From: a virus
Direction: 5' to 3' (one strand)
DNA length: 64,000 nt
Virus record (IMG/VR): IMGVR_UViG_3300025133_000038
Coordinates: 1-64,000 of that record
The notes beneath the pieces are model-generated. The model was not told the DNA's origin and did not search any database. It saw only the letters and a program-made list of their open reading frames with translations. Position numbers and translations under genes: made by a program. Positions within the stretch are counted from its first letter, which is position 1. Every line of letters starts with the position of its first letter. Positions 2,993 to 53,114 of the stretch are shown piece after piece.

Positions 2993-3253
2993 ATGAAAAA
3001 GCTACCTGAGATGCTAAGACGCTGGAATACGTTCGAGACTGTCTACAATGAGTTCTGTAGGGGCCTGTGGCAACATAGTAGTCAGGAACATGCCCTTTAC
3101 GTGGATTCGCTGGTGGCGGCTTGTACTGGCCGTGGGAATAACCAGAGACAGCTTGACCTTCATGGTCTGTCTCCTGAGTGGGTGAATAGGTATATCAATA
3201 TGGCTTGGGATGACTTTGAGAAACAGTGGGCCTTGGATGAGGCGAAAGGATAG
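2993..3253 (+). CDS. Hypothetical protein
   Basis: Start directly after previous stop. Confidence 0.75.
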   Translation: MKKLPEMLRRWNTFETVYNEFCRGLWQHSSQEHALYVDSLVAACTGRGNNQRQLDLHGLSPEWVNRYINMAWDDFEKQWALDEAKG

Positions 3254-3257
3254 TTAA

Positions 3258-3521
3258 ATGTCTACAAAAGTAAGCGTAGTAACGGCAGAACCCAGACCAG
3301 TTCACATGAGGCTCGTTGACGCTCCAACCTTGGAGTTGTTGCAGGAGGTTCATGGCTTTCAAAGGCTACTTATAACTTCTGGCAGAAAAGATAATCGTAT
3401 GGTCATCTTTTTTAATAACGATGGTATGAGTTGGGGTAGTGCTAGTGCTGTGGGTAATCAAGATATAGCGGTTCGACGAGCACCATTAGGTTCACAAGTA
3501 ACTCTCGAAGGGGGTAAGTAG
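3258..3521 (+). CDS. Hypothetical protein
   Basis: AAAGGATAGTTAA RBS motif. Confidence 0.75.
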   Translation: MSTKVSVVTAEPRPVHMRLVDAPTLELLQEVHGFQRLLITSGRKDNRMVIFFNNDGMSWGSASAVGNQDIAVRRAPLGSQVTLEGGK

Positions 3522-3522
3522 T

Positions 3523-3684
3523 ATGAGCTTTAATCAATTAGAGGAAAACGCTGAGCTTAACAAGAAGGTGATTCTATTGCAGGCCCGCATTAACATGCAG
3601 GATATTGCCATTCAGAAACTTTCAAGGGAGCTTAAAGAGAGTAAGGCGGCCCATCAGGAAACCCTAGAAGAGTATCTCTATTAA
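3523..3684 (+). CDS. Small coiled-coil hypothetical protein (53 aa, not in ORF track)
   Basis: ATG-TAA ORF MSFNQLEENAEL... fills the gap exactly. Confidence 0.7.
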   Translation: MSFNQLEENAELNKKVILLQARINMQDIAIQKLSRELKESKAAHQETLEEYLY

Positions 3685-3696
3685 AGGATAGTTAAT

Positions 3697-3891
3697 ATGT
3701 TTAATAAGGTACAAGCCAACCTATGTGCAGCTACCATCATCGACGACCTATGTGGGCGTAACGGACTGATGGAGGAGTGGGATAACCTTGACGAGGATAT
3801 TCAGACCGAGATTATTTTGGAGATTCGAGATAGAATCTTAGACCAAGACCCTGGCGAAGAAGAATATGAAACTTTGGGTATGGTTTATTAG
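3697..3891 (+). CDS. Hypothetical protein
   Basis: AAAGGATAGTTAA RBS motif. Confidence 0.75.
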   Translation: MFNKVQANLCAATIIDDLCGRNGLMEEWDNLDEDIQTEIILEIRDRILDQDPGEEEYETLGMVY

Positions 3892-11343: not shown

Positions 11344-13470
11344 ATGAAGATTGAGAATAGTGATATTGAACTACATAGTAGTCGTTTGGGTGAGTCCCAT
11401 GTCTACAAAGTAGCACAAAACGCTCAGATTATGAAGATGCTTGCTGATAATGTGTATTCAGATAAGGTGCTTGCTCCGATTCGTGAGTTGAGTACCAATG
11501 CTCTGGATGGTCATACTAAGGGTGGAAACGTAGGTCAGCCGTTTGACGTATACCTACCAACTCGCCTAAGTCCCACTTTCCGTATTCGTGACTATGGTTG
11601 CGGTATGGACCGTGAGCAACTCACTAAGATGTATACCACCTATGGTGAGTCGGACAAGAACGACAGTAACGATTTCAATGGCTGTATGGGTATCGGGAGT
11701 AAGTCTCCCTTTGCTTATGCTCAGTCGTTCACCACTACCTCCTACCATAACGGTAAGAAGTATGTGTGTATCAACTCTAAGAACGAGGAAGATATTCCTG
11801 TTCTACAATTCGTTATTGATGGGGTTGATACTGATGAACCTAATGGAATCGACATTAGCTTCGCAGTCAAAGCCAACGATGTGTATAAGTTTGAGGAAGC
11901 GGCACAAAGGTTGTACCGTCACTTCCCTGTGATGCCTAACATCAAGACTGGTGTTTGTGTCATTCCTGAGAGAGAGTATCTCTATGAAGGTAAGAACTGG
12001 CGTATCCTGGCTCATAGTGGAGAAAGCGTTGCGGTCATGGGGTGGATTGAATACCCTGTTGCCACTAAGCACTTCTCCAAGCATAACGATGACAACTACT
12101 ACTGGCGTAGACAAGACGATACTCCTGAGGCACAGTTGCTCTCAATGGGTATCGAGATGGACTTCGAGATTGGTGAAGTTGAAATGGATATGGCTCGTGA
12201 GTCACTCCAGTACAACAAGAAGTCTATCGACAACATTAAGGCTCGACTGAAGGAAATCTTAGCCTTCCTAAAGGCTGAAATGTCTAAGTCTTTCGACGAC
12301 TGTGAATCCCTATGGGATGCTCGCGTTCGATACCAGGACTTGACTTCAGGTAAGATGCAGACCCTTCAGAAGTTGATGGGGTTGCAGAAGCCAGAGTACA
12401 ATGGTGTAGACCTAAGTAAGTCTGTTGACCTTGGTGGTCTTACTGGTTGTCACTTTGTTAAGTTTCGTAACGATGGGCTGAAGAAGGCTCGTCGTACAGA
12501 TAAGATTACTGACTATCATCCTTCTGGGACTGCAACTCTCAGTAAGTTTGACTTTTATGAAAACGATATGAAGCGTGGGGAGTATTCTGCCTGCGACCGT
12601 GTTGTTATGGATAGCGACACAGACTGTCATACTGTCTACCTGTGTAAGTTTGATGATGACACAGCTCGACAAAACTTCATTGATGAAATGGGGTGGTTGG
12701 ATGACTCCTTCCTAAAGAAAACCAGTTCTGCCCCTCAGCCAAGTGCTAAGGCTAGAGCAGCGAAAGAGAACGTATTCAAGTACCGTCTGGATAAGGCGAC
12801 CACTGGGTACACTTCTAGTCGCTATGCTAAGGATTGGTGGAAACCTGAGAAGGTTGAGTTTAGTGATGGTGGCGTGTTTGTAGAGATTAACGCTTTCCGT
12901 TGTCGCTCTGCGAGTGGTACGGATAGGTCTTCCAATGAGATTGGACAGATGATTAAGCTGTTAGAGGTTCTTGGTGTTACTCCTCCTAGTGAGGTAGTCG
13001 GCATCAAAACTGTTGCTGTCAAAAAGTATCGTAAGTCGAAAGACTGGGTTGACGTTCTTGATTGGGTTAAGGAAAAGTTTAACGCTTACCTGAAAGCCAA
13101 TAAGGTTGGTGAGTTAATTGCTAACATTCAAGAGCTGGAAAGTTTTCAGGGCGACAAGTATCGCTCGATTATCAAGATTGCAAATGGCAGTTTTGACAAG
13201 AGAAGTCCTCTCCATTCCTTTTGGGCAAAGGTAGAGGAACTAGAGAAGGTGAAAGCGAGTAGCGGTACTAAGTGTTCTAGTGCCCAGAAGTTGGCTAACA
13301 TCATGCGGCTAGACCTAGCTGGTGATGCAAAGTACAACCTCGAAAACGAAGAGGCTGCCATCCTTAATCGGTATGGTATGCTTGAAGTAATCGAATCGTG
13401 GGATGTAAGGAATCACGGTGCGAAGATTGTTAGTTATGTTAACCTTATTGACAAATGTGAGGGAATTTAA
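11344..13470 (+). CDS. rIIA: rIIA-like protein (N-terminal GHKL ATPase)
   Basis: YSDK..IRELSTNALD, DYGCG, GIGSKSPF motifs; 708 aa; followed by rIIB. Confidence 0.9.
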   Translation: MKIENSDIELHSSRLGESHVYKVAQNAQIMKMLADNVYSDKVLAPIRELSTNALDGHTKGGNVGQPFDVYLPTRLSPTFRIRDYGCGMDREQLTKMYTTYGESDKNDSNDFNGCMGIGSKSPFAYAQSFTTTSYHNGKKYVCINSKNEEDIPVLQFVIDGVDTDEPNGIDISFAVKANDVYKFEEAAQRLYRHFPVMPNIKTGVCVIPEREYLYEGKNWRILAHSGESVAVMGWIEYPVATKHFSKHNDDNYYWRRQDDTPEAQLLSMGIEMDFEIGEVEMDMARESLQYNKKSIDNIKARLKEILAFLKAEMSKSFDDCESLWDARVRYQDLTSGKMQTLQKLMGLQKPEYNGVDLSKSVDLGGLTGCHFVKFRNDGLKKARRTDKITDYHPSGTATLSKFDFYENDMKRGEYSACDRVVMDSDTDCHTVYLCKFDDDTARQNFIDEMGWLDDSFLKKTSSAPQPSAKARAAKENVFKYRLDKATTGYTSSRYAKDWWKPEKVEFSDGGVFVEINAFRCRSASGTDRSSNEIGQMIKLLEVLGVTPPSEVVGIKTVAVKKYRKSKDWVDVLDWVKEKFNAYLKANKVGELIANIQELESFQGDKYRSIIKIANGSFDKRSPLHSFWAKVEELEKVKASSGTKCSSAQKLANIMRLDLAGDAKYNLENEEAAILNRYGMLEVIESWDVRNHGAKIVSYVNLIDKCEGI

Positions 13471-23927: not shown

Positions 23928-24247
23928 GGGGATGAACTGGTATCGACTGACAATGAGAACAGATTATTTGCACGTAGTGGGTGATTCGAAGGGCCACTTA
24001 AAAAATCAAATCAACAACATTAACTGCAAACTTAAATGTAAGCGTAATGACAGGTGCCCTAGCTGGCACAAGCCGTTCCTTGACCGGAACAAAAACCCGT
24101 TCTTTAACCGGAACTTTCGCCCTAGCTGCGTAAGCCAAAAGCTGGACAGAGTGATGATAGTTGTCAATAACTTAAATTGACTAAACGTGTAGACGGTAAA
24201 CATAGTAATGTTGTGCAGCTACGAGGGTTCGACTCCCTCCATCTCCA
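23928..24247 (+). ncRNA. ssrA: tmRNA
   Basis: GGGGATG/CATCTCC-A acceptor with G3.U70; GAGGG-TTCGACT-CCCTC T arm; tag ORF 24026-24133 ending FALAA-stop. Confidence 0.95.
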
Positions 24248-24303
24248 CTTATGTTTCCCTCATCTCCACTTTTGGAGAATTTGGGAATTTTTTCCACAAC
24301 CCC

Positions 24304-33831: not shown

Positions 33832-33927
33832 CTTTGCCTCGCGCGGCAATTGTCCTAAGTAAGACACTAAACTACTAGGTGAAGACCAATACCTGTCGAG
33901 AGTAATTAACTCGACGAAGAGATAACC

Positions 33928-42356: not shown

Positions 42357-42899
42357 ATGAAAATACAACAACTCAAAATCATTCAAGACGAATTAAGAAA
42401 CCCTAAAGACATTATCCCTATGGCTAAGTTTGTAGTTGGGGGTGGTATCTTTTGTTTGGGTCATCTGGCTGAGTATTTAGATGTACTACCAAGCGAGGAC
42501 TTGCTAATAGAACTGGTCCGCTTCCCAGATGGTGAGGTATACGTCCATGATGGACACCACAGGGCTGTGGCTATTTACCTAGCAGGTAGGAAGTTCCTCC
42601 ATGAGGACGAGTACTACCTAGTAGAGAGAAGCTATGAAGACTATCAAGACATAGTCTTTATGAGAAACGGTTACTACTTTGGGTACGTCACCCCCTTTAA
42701 TGTAAAGAGTGAGGCTAGGTTCGGAGACATTAGTGCCTGGAAGCACCGAGTCAAAAACATTTACTTTGAACAAAGCCCACAACATGCTAAGCATTTAATT
42801 GAAACAAGACCAGATTTATATAAGAGGGCAAAGAAGTTCTCTTCCGTTGAGGAACTAGCAAATGAAACTAGACATTACAAAAATCGAACAGGCAATTGA
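42357..42899 (+). CDS. ParB/Srx-like N-terminal domain protein
   Basis: YVHDGHHR motif. Confidence 0.7.
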   Translation: MKIQQLKIIQDELRNPKDIIPMAKFVVGGGIFCLGHLAEYLDVLPSEDLLIELVRFPDGEVYVHDGHHRAVAIYLAGRKFLHEDEYYLVERSYEDYQDIVFMRNGYYFGYVTPFNVKSEARFGDISAWKHRVKNIYFEQSPQHAKHLIETRPDLYKRAKKFSSVEELANETRHYKNRTGN

Positions 42900-43983
42900 A
42901 GACGGCTGGGTTACAAAGCGTAAGCACCCTACTGCTGACTTGTGGATTCTAAACTACTCTAAGCAGACTCAGTTTGAGTTCTACTGGGAGCCAGGAACTA
43001 CAATGACATGCCGTGGGCTAATTGTTGATGAAAAGTGGTCGGTTGTTTCACGACCTCTCGAAAAATTTTTCACACTAGACCAGCTTACTAGCATGAGAAA
43101 TAAGGTACACCACCTGTATGGTATGAAGTTTAAGAACATGTTCAAGGGTAACTTTCGATGCTTTGACAAGCTAGATGGTTCCTTGGGTGTCTTGTACCCA
43201 TTGGGTGACAAGGTGTGCGTTGCTACTAGGGGTTCGTTCGAGTCAGAAATGGCTGTTCGTGCTACTGAAATGTTAGAGGGGATGGGTCTAGCTGACCACT
43301 CTAAGTGGAAGACTGTTCATGGTGAGAGTTTGCTCGATGAAATGACTGTCATGGTGGAGATTATCTATCCAGACAACCAAATCGTTGTAGACTATAAGGG
43401 TGAAGAAAAGTTAGTCTTACTAGCTGTGGTTGACAAGAGAACAGGTAAGGATGACTGGTCTATGTACCGCATGTTTTCAAAAAAGTTTGAACCAGCTAAA
43501 GAGTTCTTCCACGTTCAAACTCTCGAAGACCTAACAGAAGAAGACTACAATGGACAAGAAGGTTATGTCCTAGTCTTTGACAATGGGTTACGAGTGAAGT
43601 GGAAGTACGAAGAGTACAAGAGGCTCCATCGTATCGTTACTGGACTAAGTGAAAACACAGTCTGGGAATGGTTGCGTGATGGTGTGGATATTAAAGATGT
43701 CCTAAAGGATGTGCCTGATGAGTTCTACAAGTGGGGCAAAGAGGTAGCATCAAGATTAAAGAGCAGGTTTAACGAGATTAACGAAGAAGCACACGATGCC
43801 TTTGTTAAGTACAATACGTTTAATGTTTCTCGTAAAGAACTTGCGGCTTGCATCAACCAATTTAAGTATAAAGGATTAGTTTTCTCTCTTGCAGACGGTA
43901 AGAGCATTAACCTATCCATATGGCAAATTATTAAACAGGAGATGAAGGATGAAAAAAGACATTCGCAACTTAAAGAAGGGTGA
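42862..43983 (+). CDS. T4 Rnl1-like RNA ligase
   Basis: CRGLI..RPLEKFF, KLDGS, ATRGSF, EII, EGYV motifs. Confidence 0.9.
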   Translation: MKLDITKIEQAIEDGWVTKRKHPTADLWILNYSKQTQFEFYWEPGTTMTCRGLIVDEKWSVVSRPLEKFFTLDQLTSMRNKVHHLYGMKFKNMFKGNFRCFDKLDGSLGVLYPLGDKVCVATRGSFESEMAVRATEMLEGMGLADHSKWKTVHGESLLDEMTVMVEIIYPDNQIVVDYKGEEKLVLLAVVDKRTGKDDWSMYRMFSKKFEPAKEFFHVQTLEDLTEEDYNGQEGYVLVFDNGLRVKWKYEEYKRLHRIVTGLSENTVWEWLRDGVDIKDVLKDVPDEFYKWGKEVASRLKSRFNEINEEAHDAFVKYNTFNVSRKELAACINQFKYKGLVFSLADGKSINLSIWQIIKQEMKDEKRHSQLKEG

Positions 43984-46380: not shown

Positions 46381-46962
46381 ATGAAGATTTACATAACATC
46401 AGATACTCACTTTAACCACACTAACATCTGTGGTCCCGCCATCTCCTCATGGGACGGTGGATACAGACACTTTTCTTCCCTGCAAGAAATGAATGATACT
46501 ATCATCGACAACATCAATGCTGTCGTTGGTAAGAATGATGTACTCTATCACCTGGGAGACTTCGCCTTCGGAAATAAGAAGGAAATCCCTACTCTGAGAG
46601 AGCGTATCAACTGTGGTACAATTCACCTCCTGTATGGCAACCATGATGAGGCTATTGAGCATAAGTTTCCTGAATATCAGAAGCTCTTTGCTTCAACAGG
46701 CCACTATGTTGAGAAGCGTGTCAATAAGAAGAAGGTTTGTATGTTTCACTATCCTATTGCTGCGTGGAATGAGAATGGTCGTGGGTCTATCAACCTACAT
46801 GGTCACTCTCATGGTAACTTTAAGGCAGTAGGGCGTCAGCTAGACGTTGGTGTTGACTGTCACGACTTCAAGCCTCTGTTGCTTGAGGATGTGGTTGCTC
46901 AGGTCAGGGAGTTGGATGTTATTACTGTTGACCATCATACTAGGGAGACTAACTATGGATGA
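46381..46962 (+). CDS. Metallophosphoesterase
   Basis: SDTHF, LGD, GNHD, HYP, HGHSH, DVGVD. Confidence 0.9.
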   Translation: MKIYITSDTHFNHTNICGPAISSWDGGYRHFSSLQEMNDTIIDNINAVVGKNDVLYHLGDFAFGNKKEIPTLRERINCGTIHLLYGNHDEAIEHKFPEYQKLFASTGHYVEKRVNKKKVCMFHYPIAAWNENGRGSINLHGHSHGNFKAVGRQLDVGVDCHDFKPLLLEDVVAQVRELDVITVDHHTRETNYG

Positions 46963-47247: not shown

Positions 47248-47275
47248 TTGACAAAACGGTTCCATCCCCTATAAT
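47248..47275 (+). promoter_or_regulatory. sigma70-like promoter
   Basis: TTGACA-N16-TATAAT. Confidence 0.85.
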
Positions 47276-48061: not shown

Positions 48062-48433
48062 ATGGCTGGTACATTTACCCTTACTCTGTATGGTACGTTA
48101 GTCAACGGAGAACACACTGAGACATTTGGTACTTCCTCTAAGTCAAGTATTGTTCAGACTGGTCAGGGAGTTCAGGGTTCAACCGTTGCGGTTGGCACTT
48201 CTGAAGAGGTTATGGTCACTGGTGATATTACTACAGAAGGTATCATATATTTGAAGAATCTTGATTCTGTAAACTACGTTACGTATGGTCCTGAAAATGC
48301 TGGCTCCCTAGTTAATTTTGGTAGGATTGCTGCTGGTGAGGAGGCTTGGCTTAGACTTGAGCCAGGAATCACATTTAGGTGGATTGCTAATACTGCTGAA
48401 GTTAAAGTTTTAATGAAATTGTTTGAGGACTAA
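48062..48433 (+). CDS. Hypothetical beta-rich protein (possibly virion-associated)
   Basis: T/G/V-rich composition; KNLD motif. Confidence 0.7.
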   Translation: MAGTFTLTLYGTLVNGEHTETFGTSSKSSIVQTGQGVQGSTVAVGTSEEVMVTGDITTEGIIYLKNLDSVNYVTYGPENAGSLVNFGRIAAGEEAWLRLEPGITFRWIANTAEVKVLMKLFED

Positions 48434-48444
48434 GGTTCTCTTTT

Positions 48445-48513
48445 GCTTCTGGTTACTGGTGTACGTCGCTGTCTTGTAAACAGCTAACCTCCGTTCGATT
48501 CGGAGTAGAAGCT
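48445..48513 (+). tRNA. tRNA-Thr(TGT), short D arm
   Basis: GCTGT-CTTGTAA-ACAGC. Confidence 0.85.
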
Positions 48514-48515
48514 CT

Positions 48516-48627
48516 TGCGGGTGGTAGGTCGGTTGAATCACTAAACTAAGAAAATGTCTAGTGGGTTCTTAATCTTGCTAAGCCTCATAAGCTAAGTATA
48601 AGCAGGTTCGACTCCTGTACTCCGCTA
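48516..48627 (+). tRNA. tRNA-Met(CAT)-like with about 40-nt hairpin insertion in the D loop
   Basis: GCGGG../..CCGC acceptor; loop CTCATAA; GCAGG-TTCGACT-CCTGT; GAATCACTA/TAGTGGGTTC insert. Confidence 0.7.
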
Positions 48628-48630
48628 CTT

Positions 48631-49200
48631 GTCCCACTGTCATCGGGACACAAAACTAGTTTACCCTTTCGGAATGACGGGTGATTAGACTGCTTGCAGT
48701 ATAGATGAAAGGTCGTTCTAAACTTCCTCTTCCATGAGGGAGAATAGAGCATGGAGACTAGAGGATAAAACCTGTGGCAGGGTAGAAACCTCTCAGTAGC
48801 TAGACGGTAAGAGTGAGGGTGCCATCCCTTATGTCTGCTGAAAGGAACGATAGTTTTTGGGTGTTTTCCTGATGTACGTCATCGGTTCATAGCAAATGAA
48901 TCTGGGAAATAAAATACCATAGCAGTAGGAGGAAGTGCCTACGGTTGTTGGCGAAAGCTGATGATGCTGCTCGAAAGAGGTAAGCTAGACGGACTTCCCA
49001 GGTCTTGAAGGTTTACGAATGAAGGGTGTGGTGGCTGCAACCACTATGTTTTAAATCCAGAACTTCTACTGCTAATTCAGCGTGCTGTTGCGTGGGTGAG
49101 AACTCAACAACAGGGGTGAAGTTTGCGAAGGCTGTTATAGGTCGTGTAGTACTCCGAGAGGAGGTCACAAACTGAGAACATAAACTGCTAAAGTTCTCTT
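48631..49200 (+). ncRNA. Large ornate ncRNA (about 570 nt), GOLLD/ROOL-class candidate
   Basis: No credible ORF; many nested helices including a 12-bp long-range stem 48920-48931/49063-49074; GNRA loops; flanked by tRNAs. Confidence 0.7.
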
Positions 49201-49206
49201 TTTTAT

Positions 49207-49277
49207 ACCAGTGTCCCAAGGTCAGGGAGTGTGCTTTCATAAGGCATTACGCTGAGGTTCGAGTCCTCTCACTGGTA
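49207..49277 (+). tRNA. tRNA-Met/Ile2(CAT)
   Basis: ACCAGTG/CACTGGT; GTGCT-TTCATAA-GGCAT. Confidence 0.85.
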
Positions 49278-49377
49278 CTTATATGAGGGGACGGTACAAA
49301 TGGCTGTCAGCAGAAGCTAGACTCAAGCGGGCTGTGGTATGCGTCGTGCAAGGGTCATTCCCCGCAACCCTCTCCAT

Positions 49378-49448
49378 TGGTCATTAGTGTAATGGTAGCA
49401 CTAGAGACTCTGAATCTCTCAGTCTAGGTCCGAATCCTAGATGACCAG
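49378..49448 (+). tRNA. tRNA-Gln(CTG)
   Basis: AGAGA-CTCTGAA-TCTCT; T loop TCCGAAT. Confidence 0.9.
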
Positions 49449-51898: not shown

Positions 51899-52384
51899 AT
51901 GCTAGACTTACAATTTAAAAGACTGGACGATGCTGCTACACTACCAACCAAATCAAATCCTAAGGATATGGGCTGGGATATTTATGTTGTTGCCGATGTT
52001 AGTTTTCGTAGTCTTCCAGTAAGTGGGTGCGGCCCTAATTGCACCAGCTACATTAAGACAAAAACCCTTATGCCAGGACAATCACATAAGTTTAAGACAG
52101 GTATCGCCTGTGCTATCCCAGACGGATATGGTATGATGTTCTGGGATAGGAGTGGTCTTGGGTCGAAGGGCGTTCATAGATTAGCTGGGGTTATTGACTG
52201 TACTTATCGGGGTGAATGGCAGATTTGTTTAACCAACCTGGGCGGTAGGGCTATTAAAATTACAGAGGGCGACCGCATCGTACAGGGTGTTCTTCAACAG
52301 ATGGTTGAGGCTGAGGCTCGCTGGGTTGATGAGTTGGATGAGACTGAGCGCGGCGAAGGTGGATTTGGTTCAACAGGAGCATAA
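51899..52384 (+). CDS. dut: Trimeric dUTPase
   Basis: GWD, DRSGL, GVIDCTYRG, RIVQ, RGEGGFGSTG. Confidence 0.95.
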   Translation: MLDLQFKRLDDAATLPTKSNPKDMGWDIYVVADVSFRSLPVSGCGPNCTSYIKTKTLMPGQSHKFKTGIACAIPDGYGMMFWDRSGLGSKGVHRLAGVIDCTYRGEWQICLTNLGGRAIKITEGDRIVQGVLQQMVEAEARWVDELDETERGEGGFGSTGA

Positions 52385-52385
52385 G

Positions 52386-53114
52386 ATGAAAAATACAGTG
52401 ATTATTTTGGGAGCCTCTTATAGATGTGGCTCCACCTTTGTCCAGAGACTATTAAATTCGATTCCAGATGTGTTAATCCTAGGTGAGGAAAACATGGTTC
52501 TACCTAGCTCAGGGAAAAGTATATCTTCCTCATTGAGGAACGAAGAGGGGGCTAAGGAGCAGAAAGAAAAGGTCTTGGGTGGTGAGGATTGCTGGCAAGC
52601 TAATCTTGGTATGGAACCAGAGTCAGTAAGCAGAGCAGCAGGGGCATATTACTATCAGTGGTTTATGGATTCCTATAAGAGTATGGGGTATGAAAAATCT
52701 CCAAGCACTATGGGTTTTAAGAGTTTATTTGCAACAAGAGATACTCTTGGCGGGGCAATAAATATCTTTAAAAACCCGTATATTATCTTTTTACACAGAA
52801 ACCTTAGGGATTCTTTTGCTTCATATAGTAAGTGTTCATGGAAAGGGTATAACTTTAGAGAGTTTTGTGGTATGTGGCAAGATTCTATGGCTTTAATGAC
52901 AAGTCCCTACGATGATATTCTTAGTTCGCGAGTCAAATATGAAGACATTAAAGACTTTGGGTGGCTTAAAGATATGGAAGACAAACTTGGCCTAGATATT
53001 GACTGGGATAAAATAGATAAGGTGGCAAGTTCTAAAATTAGAAACGCTAAGCCTGAGCAAGACGTAGAGCTTGACGAGAAAGATAAGATTGTACTGGAGA
53101 ATCTATGCCCTTAA
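52386..53114 (+). CDS. Sulfotransferase family protein
   Basis: GASYRCGSTFVQRLLN, GFK, HRNLRDSFAS, KYED. Confidence 0.8.
   Translation: MKNTVIILGASYRCGSTFVQRLLNSIPDVLILGEENMVLPSSGKSISSSLRNEEGAKEQKEKVLGGEDCWQANLGMEPESVSRAAGAYYYQWFMDSYKSMGYEKSPSTMGFKSLFATRDTLGGAINIFKNPYIIFLHRNLRDSFASYSKCSWKGYNFREFCGMWQDSMALMTSPYDDILSSRVKYEDIKDFGWLKDMEDKLGLDIDWDKIDKVASSKIRNAKPEQDVELDEKDKIVLENLCP

Follow-up and report, generated by a model that had tools for sequence, protein, structure and literature searches.

A conserved 576-nt element in the tRNA array of an uncultured marine T4-like phage, probably encoding a new large structured non-coding RNA

The locus, its borders and its flanking tRNA genes

The window, i.e. 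the whole 64,000-nt stretch of DNA analysed here, is taken from a 119-kb IMG/VR virus record, of which it covers the first 64 kb. It carries 35-36 tRNA genes in an array and one tmRNA gene together with T4-type genes (rIIA, rIIB, gp44 clamp loader, RNA ligase 1, DNA ligase and thymidylate synthase). The public sequencing runs that contain positions 48631-49206 are marine, and a search for a close cultured phage found none (RNA ligase identity <35%); the source is an uncultured marine T4-like phage. The tmRNA gene (23928-24248; 86.7 bits), with a predicted tag peptide ending in ...FALAA, heads the array of 35 tRNA genes. Just upstream of the tRNA/RNA island are the genes for RNA ligase 1 (42862-43983) and a calcineurin-like metallophosphoesterase (46381-46962); this synteny is kept in both clades described below, and the two genes may constitute a tRNA-repair module. 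Moreover, the block 52395-53094, inside the ORF 52287-53114, shows 26-53 differences per 100 nt relative to L002, a relative that is otherwise 93-99% identical, which suggests mosaic replacement of one gene.

A preliminary description of this DNA had pointed to a long ORF-free stretch with nested helices between two CAT tRNAs. We find no conserved ORF in 48631-49206, where the stop-to-stop frames are at most 102 codons long and differ among the homologues. With respect to the flanking genes the description was half right: a tRNA-Met(CAT) is called downstream, but the gene upstream is only tRNA-like (Table 1), and the flanking genes in the other clade are tRNA-Thr and tRNA-Gln. The tRNA-like gene is present in the window clade only and absent from the L010 clade; the bin covering its D-region insert (48495-48594) has 25 differences and small deletions relative to L002, the remaining gene being nearly identical. 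The close relative has the same 92-nt unassigned spacer between tRNA-Met and tRNA-Gln (49285-49376) without a single difference; L010 lacks this spacer and has tRNA-Gln directly after the RNA.

The edges of the homology coincide exactly with tRNA ends. No promoter was predicted directly 5' of the RNA, which is therefore probably transcribed together with the tRNAs, for example from the promoter at 47248. In one metatranscriptome run a single 163-nt contig spans 48982-49144 with two differences, and DNA carry-over is a possible source of this contig. The motif GACAC(A/T)AAACTA occurs at 33863-33874 and at 48647-48658, in both places after a small hairpin just 3' of a tRNA; its occurrence is not clearly above chance (with one mismatch allowed, the count is equalled or exceeded in 7 of 100 shuffles). 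A Shine-Dalgarno-like AGGAGG at 48926, positioned 2 nt before a GUG that opens just 8-9 codons, was rejected.

Table 1. Coordinates in the window of the RNA element, its predicted parts and the adjacent features
Feature	Coordinates	Strand	Remarks
Sigma-70 consensus promoter	47248-47275	+	12/12 positions; nearest upstream candidate for the tRNA/RNA transcript; pattern match only
tRNA-like gene, 112 nt, CAT loop	48516-48628	+	Not called by ARAGORN; Infernal 15.5 bits vs tRNA-Sec
Whole RNA element, 576 nt	48631-49206	+	Homology block common to L010, L031 and L032; no Rfam match
5' hairpin GUCCC/GGGAC, 9-nt loop	48631-48649	+	Stem invariant in 4/4; one A>G in the loop; starts 2-3 nt past the tRNA-like gene
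Helices 2 and 3 (48656-70/48676-88; ACUG-CUUG-CAGU hairpin)	48656-48700	+	Covariation
Hypervariable region, helices 4-7	48708-48809	+	48% identity between clades; all four helices covary
Helices 8 and 9, hairpin with invariant loop UGCCAU (48820-25)	48806-48839	+	Consensus fold
Most conserved core, three-way junction, helices 11-14, including the GAUG-UACGU-CAUC hairpin	48860-48918	+	91% core identity
Candidate 11-bp alternative or long-range helix, 5' strand	48877-48887	+	Partner 48956-48966; pairable in all 4 sequences
Multi-branched domain, four inner hairpins, two GNRA loops, CUGCAA loop	48920-49074	+	Closed by the 12-bp helix 48920-31/49063-74
Helix 22, long hairpin including CUGUUG/CAACAG	49080-49117	+	13 pairs all kept, 1 changed on both sides and 3 on one
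Helices 23-25	49120-49173	+	Helix 23 spans 54 nt, 1 compensatory pair
Terminal hairpin GAGAAC/GUUCUC and U run (helix 27)	49174-49206	+	1 compensatory pair, A-U to G-C; ends 1 nt before tRNA-Met
tRNA-Met(CAT)	49207-49278	+	Downstream flank, 31.4 bits

Homologues and searches for known RNA families

Four distinct versions of the element were recovered and these belong to two clades, one with the window and L032 and the other with L010 and L031. Within the first, the close relative (L002, L011 and L032) differs at 6 of the 576 positions; because divergence along that locus is mosaic, the similarity to L002 says little on selection. The second was reached through contigs of the runs X8 and X4, for which the match to the window is limited to 48630-49205 and the flanks are unlike it. 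In the 32-kb contig of run X8 the matching parts correspond to 48630-48684 and 48795-49205 (67 differences and 11 gaps) and the middle is unalignable. A search with letters from its flanks identified L010 in IMG/VR as its counterpart, and L031 was added by a metagenome scan; the runs X10 and X17 covered the stretch only in part.

In L010 the RNA is located directly between tRNA-Thr(tgt) and tRNA-Gln(ctg), and the same two tRNA genes bracket it at a distance in the window. The next relative, L035, was found via the neighbouring phosphoesterase (50% identity), and here only 5 nt separate tRNA-Thr(tgt) from tRNA-Gln(ctg) (12389-12536) and the RNA is missing, which makes this an 'empty site'. The occupied site in L010 and the empty site in L035 indicate that the RNA is a discrete cassette, which occupies a tRNA slot and is either complete or missing altogether.

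Between the clades the RNA is 75% identical overall (440/586), with 91% identity in the core (columns 221-330) and 48% in an internal region of approximately 100 nt. For the orthologous neighbouring tRNAs the corresponding values are 64-83% and for the flanking proteins 27-52% (RNA ligase 37%, phosphoesterase 52% and sulfotransferase 27%). Hence, the RNA is conserved like a tRNA and unlike neutral DNA, while recent transfer of the cassette could explain part of the high identity.

To look for further members we used nhmmer and R1, a covariance model of 48860-49074. In the 80 loci with homologous phosphoesterase genes, which had been obtained by a profile search, no credible copy was detected. 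Among 48 whole viral records the only match was in that of L010 itself (0 of the 47 others; the records of L031 and L032 are outside this set), and a second copy in the present genome was not found. A scan with 18-mers of contigs from prokaryote genomes gave 38 stretches and no homologue (best nhmmer E-value 0.0038, seed only), a 16-mer scan of viral contigs gave 20 stretches of which 18 were chance matches, and a 20-mer scan returned the two known records only. Searches with the 123-aa, 217-aa and RnlA proteins singly returned the close relative plus one contig with 41% identity and without tRNA genes. The sequence AGCTAGACGG, present twice in the window, was used in a gapped motif scan that gave five stretches, none of them related by blastn; two of the five are in tRNA arrays, the one in L007 is a long direct repeat, and the sequence was dropped as a signature because it is not conserved in L010. 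The absence from the 47 records and the 80 loci means that the family is small or that the search was too shallow.

The preliminary description had proposed either a divergent member of the GOLLD and ROOL classes or a new class, with Infernal cmscan as the way to tell them apart. At gathering thresholds all 4227 models of Rfam 15 gave nothing in 48631-49206. With permissive filters and E<=10 no family was predicted for the element, either in the window (48400-49400) or in its L010 homologue (3030-3780), and this includes the covariance models for GOLLD (RF01998) and ROOL (RF03087). The rows inside the element were at chance level (isrN, 13.3 bits; a human lncRNA model, 14.4 bits), while those outside it are the matches of the flanking tRNA genes to tRNA models. 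RNase P RNA, group I/II introns, tmRNA, OLE, HEARO, raiA, 6S RNA and self-cleaving ribozymes likewise had no Rfam 15 match in the element. Thus, in both clades GOLLD, ROOL, OLE, RNase P RNA, introns and self-cleaving ribozymes are undetectable at this level, and the outcome, no match together with covarying homologues of a conserved and discrete RNA, favours the new class. Finally, blastn of the stretch against 50,697 phage records gave nothing. Our literature search found no paper describing an RNA at 48631-49206, which does not prove that there is none; the supplementary lists of PMC10690425, with 8,495 candidate RNAs from IMG/VR, might include it.

Consensus fold and covariation

For the four sequences RNAalifold predicted 158 pairs, 33 of which are changed on both sides yet kept. 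The consensus that we counted, derived from the same alignment on which its pairs were then counted, has 156 pairs in 27 helices, and 99.0% of the 623 cells are paired. Pairs changed on both sides number 31, spread over 19 helices, compared with 1-8 when the partners were slid by 1-3 columns (36-48% pairing in these controls). None of 500 shuffles reached the observed value on four of five measures; on the fifth, further pair types, 49 were observed vs a shuffle mean of 53.1, and 459 of the 500 shuffles were as high. Nearly all of this covariation rests on one divergence, because the four sequences represent two clades only.

Folds of single sequences were also compared across the clades. The fold of the window transferred to L010 kept 18 of 24 doubly changed pairs and that of L010 transferred to the window 20 of 26, with 4-15 of 12-23 kept in the shifted controls; this support is real but moderate, as expected of whole-length minimum free energy folds. 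The z-score for whole-length folding is -1.96 for the + strand and -0.86 for the - strand, so the thermodynamic signal alone is weak. The consensus includes 23-29 G-U pairs among the 156, and therefore only the + strand fits. Several helices face competing alternative pairings. In addition, many candidates for long-range helices have one or two compensatory pairs each; with two clades these are indistinguishable from chance and were set aside, except for 48877-87/48956-66.

In the 5' part, both partners have been replaced in two pairs of helix 2, where L032 also has G-C in place of a G-U pair, and helix 3 has one compensatory pair. The pairing AAAACTA/TAGTTTT of the preliminary description is unsupported, and instead the local helix 48656-61/48683-88 covaries; TCGTTCT/GGAACGA, which is down to four pairs in L010, also lacks support. 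These are the two unsupported ones among the nine helices of that description. In the hypervariable region every pair in helices 5 (5/5) and 7 (4/4) is changed on both sides while the loop sequences UUCCAU and GUGGCA persist; two such pairs occur in each of helices 4 and 6. The loop GUGGCA (48774-79) is fully complementary to the loop of helices 8 and 9, and on this complementarity, read from the sequence, the two are candidates for a kissing-loop interaction; both loops are invariant and hence give no covariation test. For TCCATG/CATGGA, five of six pairs are kept with one compensatory change, but it lies within the loop of a better supported hairpin and stands as a pseudoknot candidate only.

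The pairs of the core (48860-48918) are all invariant except for one change from U-A to U-G. The domain 48920-49074 has the same architecture when the window and L010 sequences are folded separately (z = -2.08 and -2.74, respectively). Its closing 12-bp helix, which had been noted before, is confirmed with three pairs changed on both sides, and the previously seen GAAA tetraloops are also borne out: that at 48953-56 is kept, and that at 48973-76 is changed from GAAA to GCAA with the stem covarying. The pairings GTGGT/ACCAC, CTGTTG/CAACAG and TTCC..GGGAA all appear in the consensus fold, with invariant pairs or wobble changes only. GGAAGT/ACTTCC is kept via wobble but competes with a covarying local hairpin. 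Hammerhead-like words (CUGAUGA...GAAA, 48958-76) are not conserved in L010, have no support in Rfam and were rejected.

The partners 48881 (A>G) and 48962 (T>C) in the 11-bp helix candidate constitute two of the six substitutions between the window and L032, and together they change an A-U to a G-C pair. The simulated chance of such a coincidence is 0.003-0.007 for helices of 10-11 bp and 2% for 8 bp, a post hoc figure. Two local hairpins with support of their own compete with the 11-bp helix, which could represent an alternative state or an intermolecular contact.

Towards the 3' end, the inner hairpin at 49152-63 consists of unrelated sequences in the window, L010 and L031, each of them self-complementary. 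The terminal hairpin followed by a T run had been described correctly, and one compensatory pair supports it. Its loop, AUAAACUGCUAAA, is 13 nt long and invariant in all four sequences, and the terminator scan missed the hairpin because the loop is longer than 8 nt. This loop (49180-49192) holds ACUGCUA, which in both clades is pairable with the 5' strand of the 12-bp helix (48920-48926), with two wobbles in L010, and may thus form an alternative pairing.

Interpretation and relation to other phage RNAs

For this sharply bordered + strand element, conserved and covarying in two clades and absent from Rfam, our preferred explanation, which we consider probable, is that 48631-49206 encodes a large structured non-coding RNA of a new family, found in one small lineage of T4-like phages that are marine and uncultured. 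Its gene occupies a tRNA 'slot' of the phage tRNA operon, and the RNA would be co-transcribed with the tRNAs and then be excised by tRNA-processing enzymes of the host. The 5' end would result from 3' processing of the upstream tRNA, and the 3' end from RNase P cleavage at the downstream tRNA-Met or from termination at the RNA's own hairpin and U run. The predicted product would fold into about 26 helices, arranged as a 5' part with a fast-evolving insert, a near-invariant three-way junction, the multi-branched domain closed by 12 bp and a 3' part. We envisage a stable folded RNA particle that may act in trans for the translation and tRNA-supply programme of the phage, conceivably as a scaffold or decoy for a protein or through self-assembly as in GOLLD and ROOL. 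The RNA ligase 1 and metallophosphoesterase genes in the island fit a role in tRNA supply or protection of translation, as context only. That the stretch yields one single RNA appears somewhat more plausible to us than its division.

Division would mean a chain of small RNAs that fold independently and are separated by processing, a pattern known from other phage tRNA arrays; candidate modules are 48631-48700, 48708-48858, 48860-48918, 48920-49074 and 49080-49206. The consensus fold is indeed built from local domains: no helix joins the two ends and the longest one spans 155 nt. The T4 tRNA cluster provides a precedent in two separate small stable RNAs. These are annotated as rnaC (species 1, 139 nt) and rnaD (species 2, 119 nt), both stable RNAs of unknown function directly after a tRNA; the present element likewise abuts a tRNA in the tRNA cluster of a T4-type phage, but they are four to five times smaller. 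A search of the T4 tRNA region with R1 and filters off gave 9.1 bits at best, elsewhere than rnaC/rnaD, and nhmmer gave no match. However, the four versions all contain the complete set of modules in one order, L035 lacks the whole set, adjacent helices are only 0-5 nt apart, and the stretch has no tRNA-like element inside. Moreover, the candidate 11-bp helix with its compensatory pair links two modules, and a 10-bp candidate links 48656-65 with 48979-88. We therefore regard the chain as unlikely, yet still to be reckoned with.

According to another explanation the stretch would be a cis-acting or non-functional spacer, i.e. a cassette for processing or termination of the tRNA operon, or recently transferred DNA in which similarity reflects recency. 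The hairpin and U run at the end, the presence or absence as a block between relatives and the narrow distribution agree with this. On the other hand, a terminator needs approximately 35 nt and not 576, the doubly changed pairs show selection on the fold along the whole length, and the identity of the RNA is no higher than that of the best conserved neighbouring tRNA, which argues against very recent transfer; together these make a spacer improbable.

To our knowledge only a handful of bacterial or phage RNAs exceed 500 nt with elaborate conserved folds, and the two known from phages are GOLLD and ROOL. ROOL is approximately 580 nt and GOLLD often >800 nt, and both build RNA-only cages, the purpose of which is still unknown. 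Like ROOL, the present RNA is large, ornate, phage-borne, near tRNAs and without a known function; it differs in having no match to the covariance model, and these marine T4-like phages represent other hosts and another habitat. Like GOLLD, it is located in a phage tRNA array and has a conserved and a less conserved part; here also a covariance-model match is lacking, and the hints of self-pairing are only short palindromes in invariant loops. A cryo-EM preprint on OLE, ROOL and GOLLD (10.1101/2024.12.08.627333) describes ROOL as an ornate RNA that phages and prophages encode, in many cases close to tRNA islands, with pseudoknots and a poorly conserved internal linker. It describes GOLLD as a phage RNA near tRNAs, in which one part is conserved and another less so and palindromic kissing loops mediate assembly, one studied example being marine and downstream of a tRNA-Met (10.1101/2024.12.08.627333). 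The present element shares with these families the context (phages and tRNA islands), the size range of ROOL and a variable internal region, which according to the same preprint both have (10.1101/2024.12.08.627333). A highly divergent member of either would fit these features, but the failure of either model to match at E<=10 in the window or L010 leaves this reading, already disfavoured, with very little probability.

Least credible of all is that one or more small proteins are encoded: the window and L010 both have an open + strand frame of 49-53 codons, but in L031 this frame carries a 1-nt deletion, the open frames differ among the four versions, the indels among the homologues are 1, 2, 3 and 6 nt, and the substitutions by codon phase (29/22/18) lack 3-base periodicity.

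If, as under the preferred reading of a new RNA family, the element is unrelated to GOLLD and ROOL but matches them in size and genomic niche, this would suggest that phage tRNA islands repeatedly carry large folded RNAs as accessories. The element would also represent a new and compact subject for structural work, and since the flanking tRNAs fix its borders within a few bases, in vitro transcription and direct testing are possible. A more speculative and rather doubtful extension is that it constitutes a third, unrelated self-assembling RNA-only particle of phage tRNA islands, in which the invariant palindrome-bearing loops and the 11-bp helix 48877-87/48956-66 would act between molecules or switch between monomer and assembled states. 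The loops in question are CUGCAA (49035-40) and UACGU (48875-79), which contain the palindromes UGCA and ACGU, respectively.
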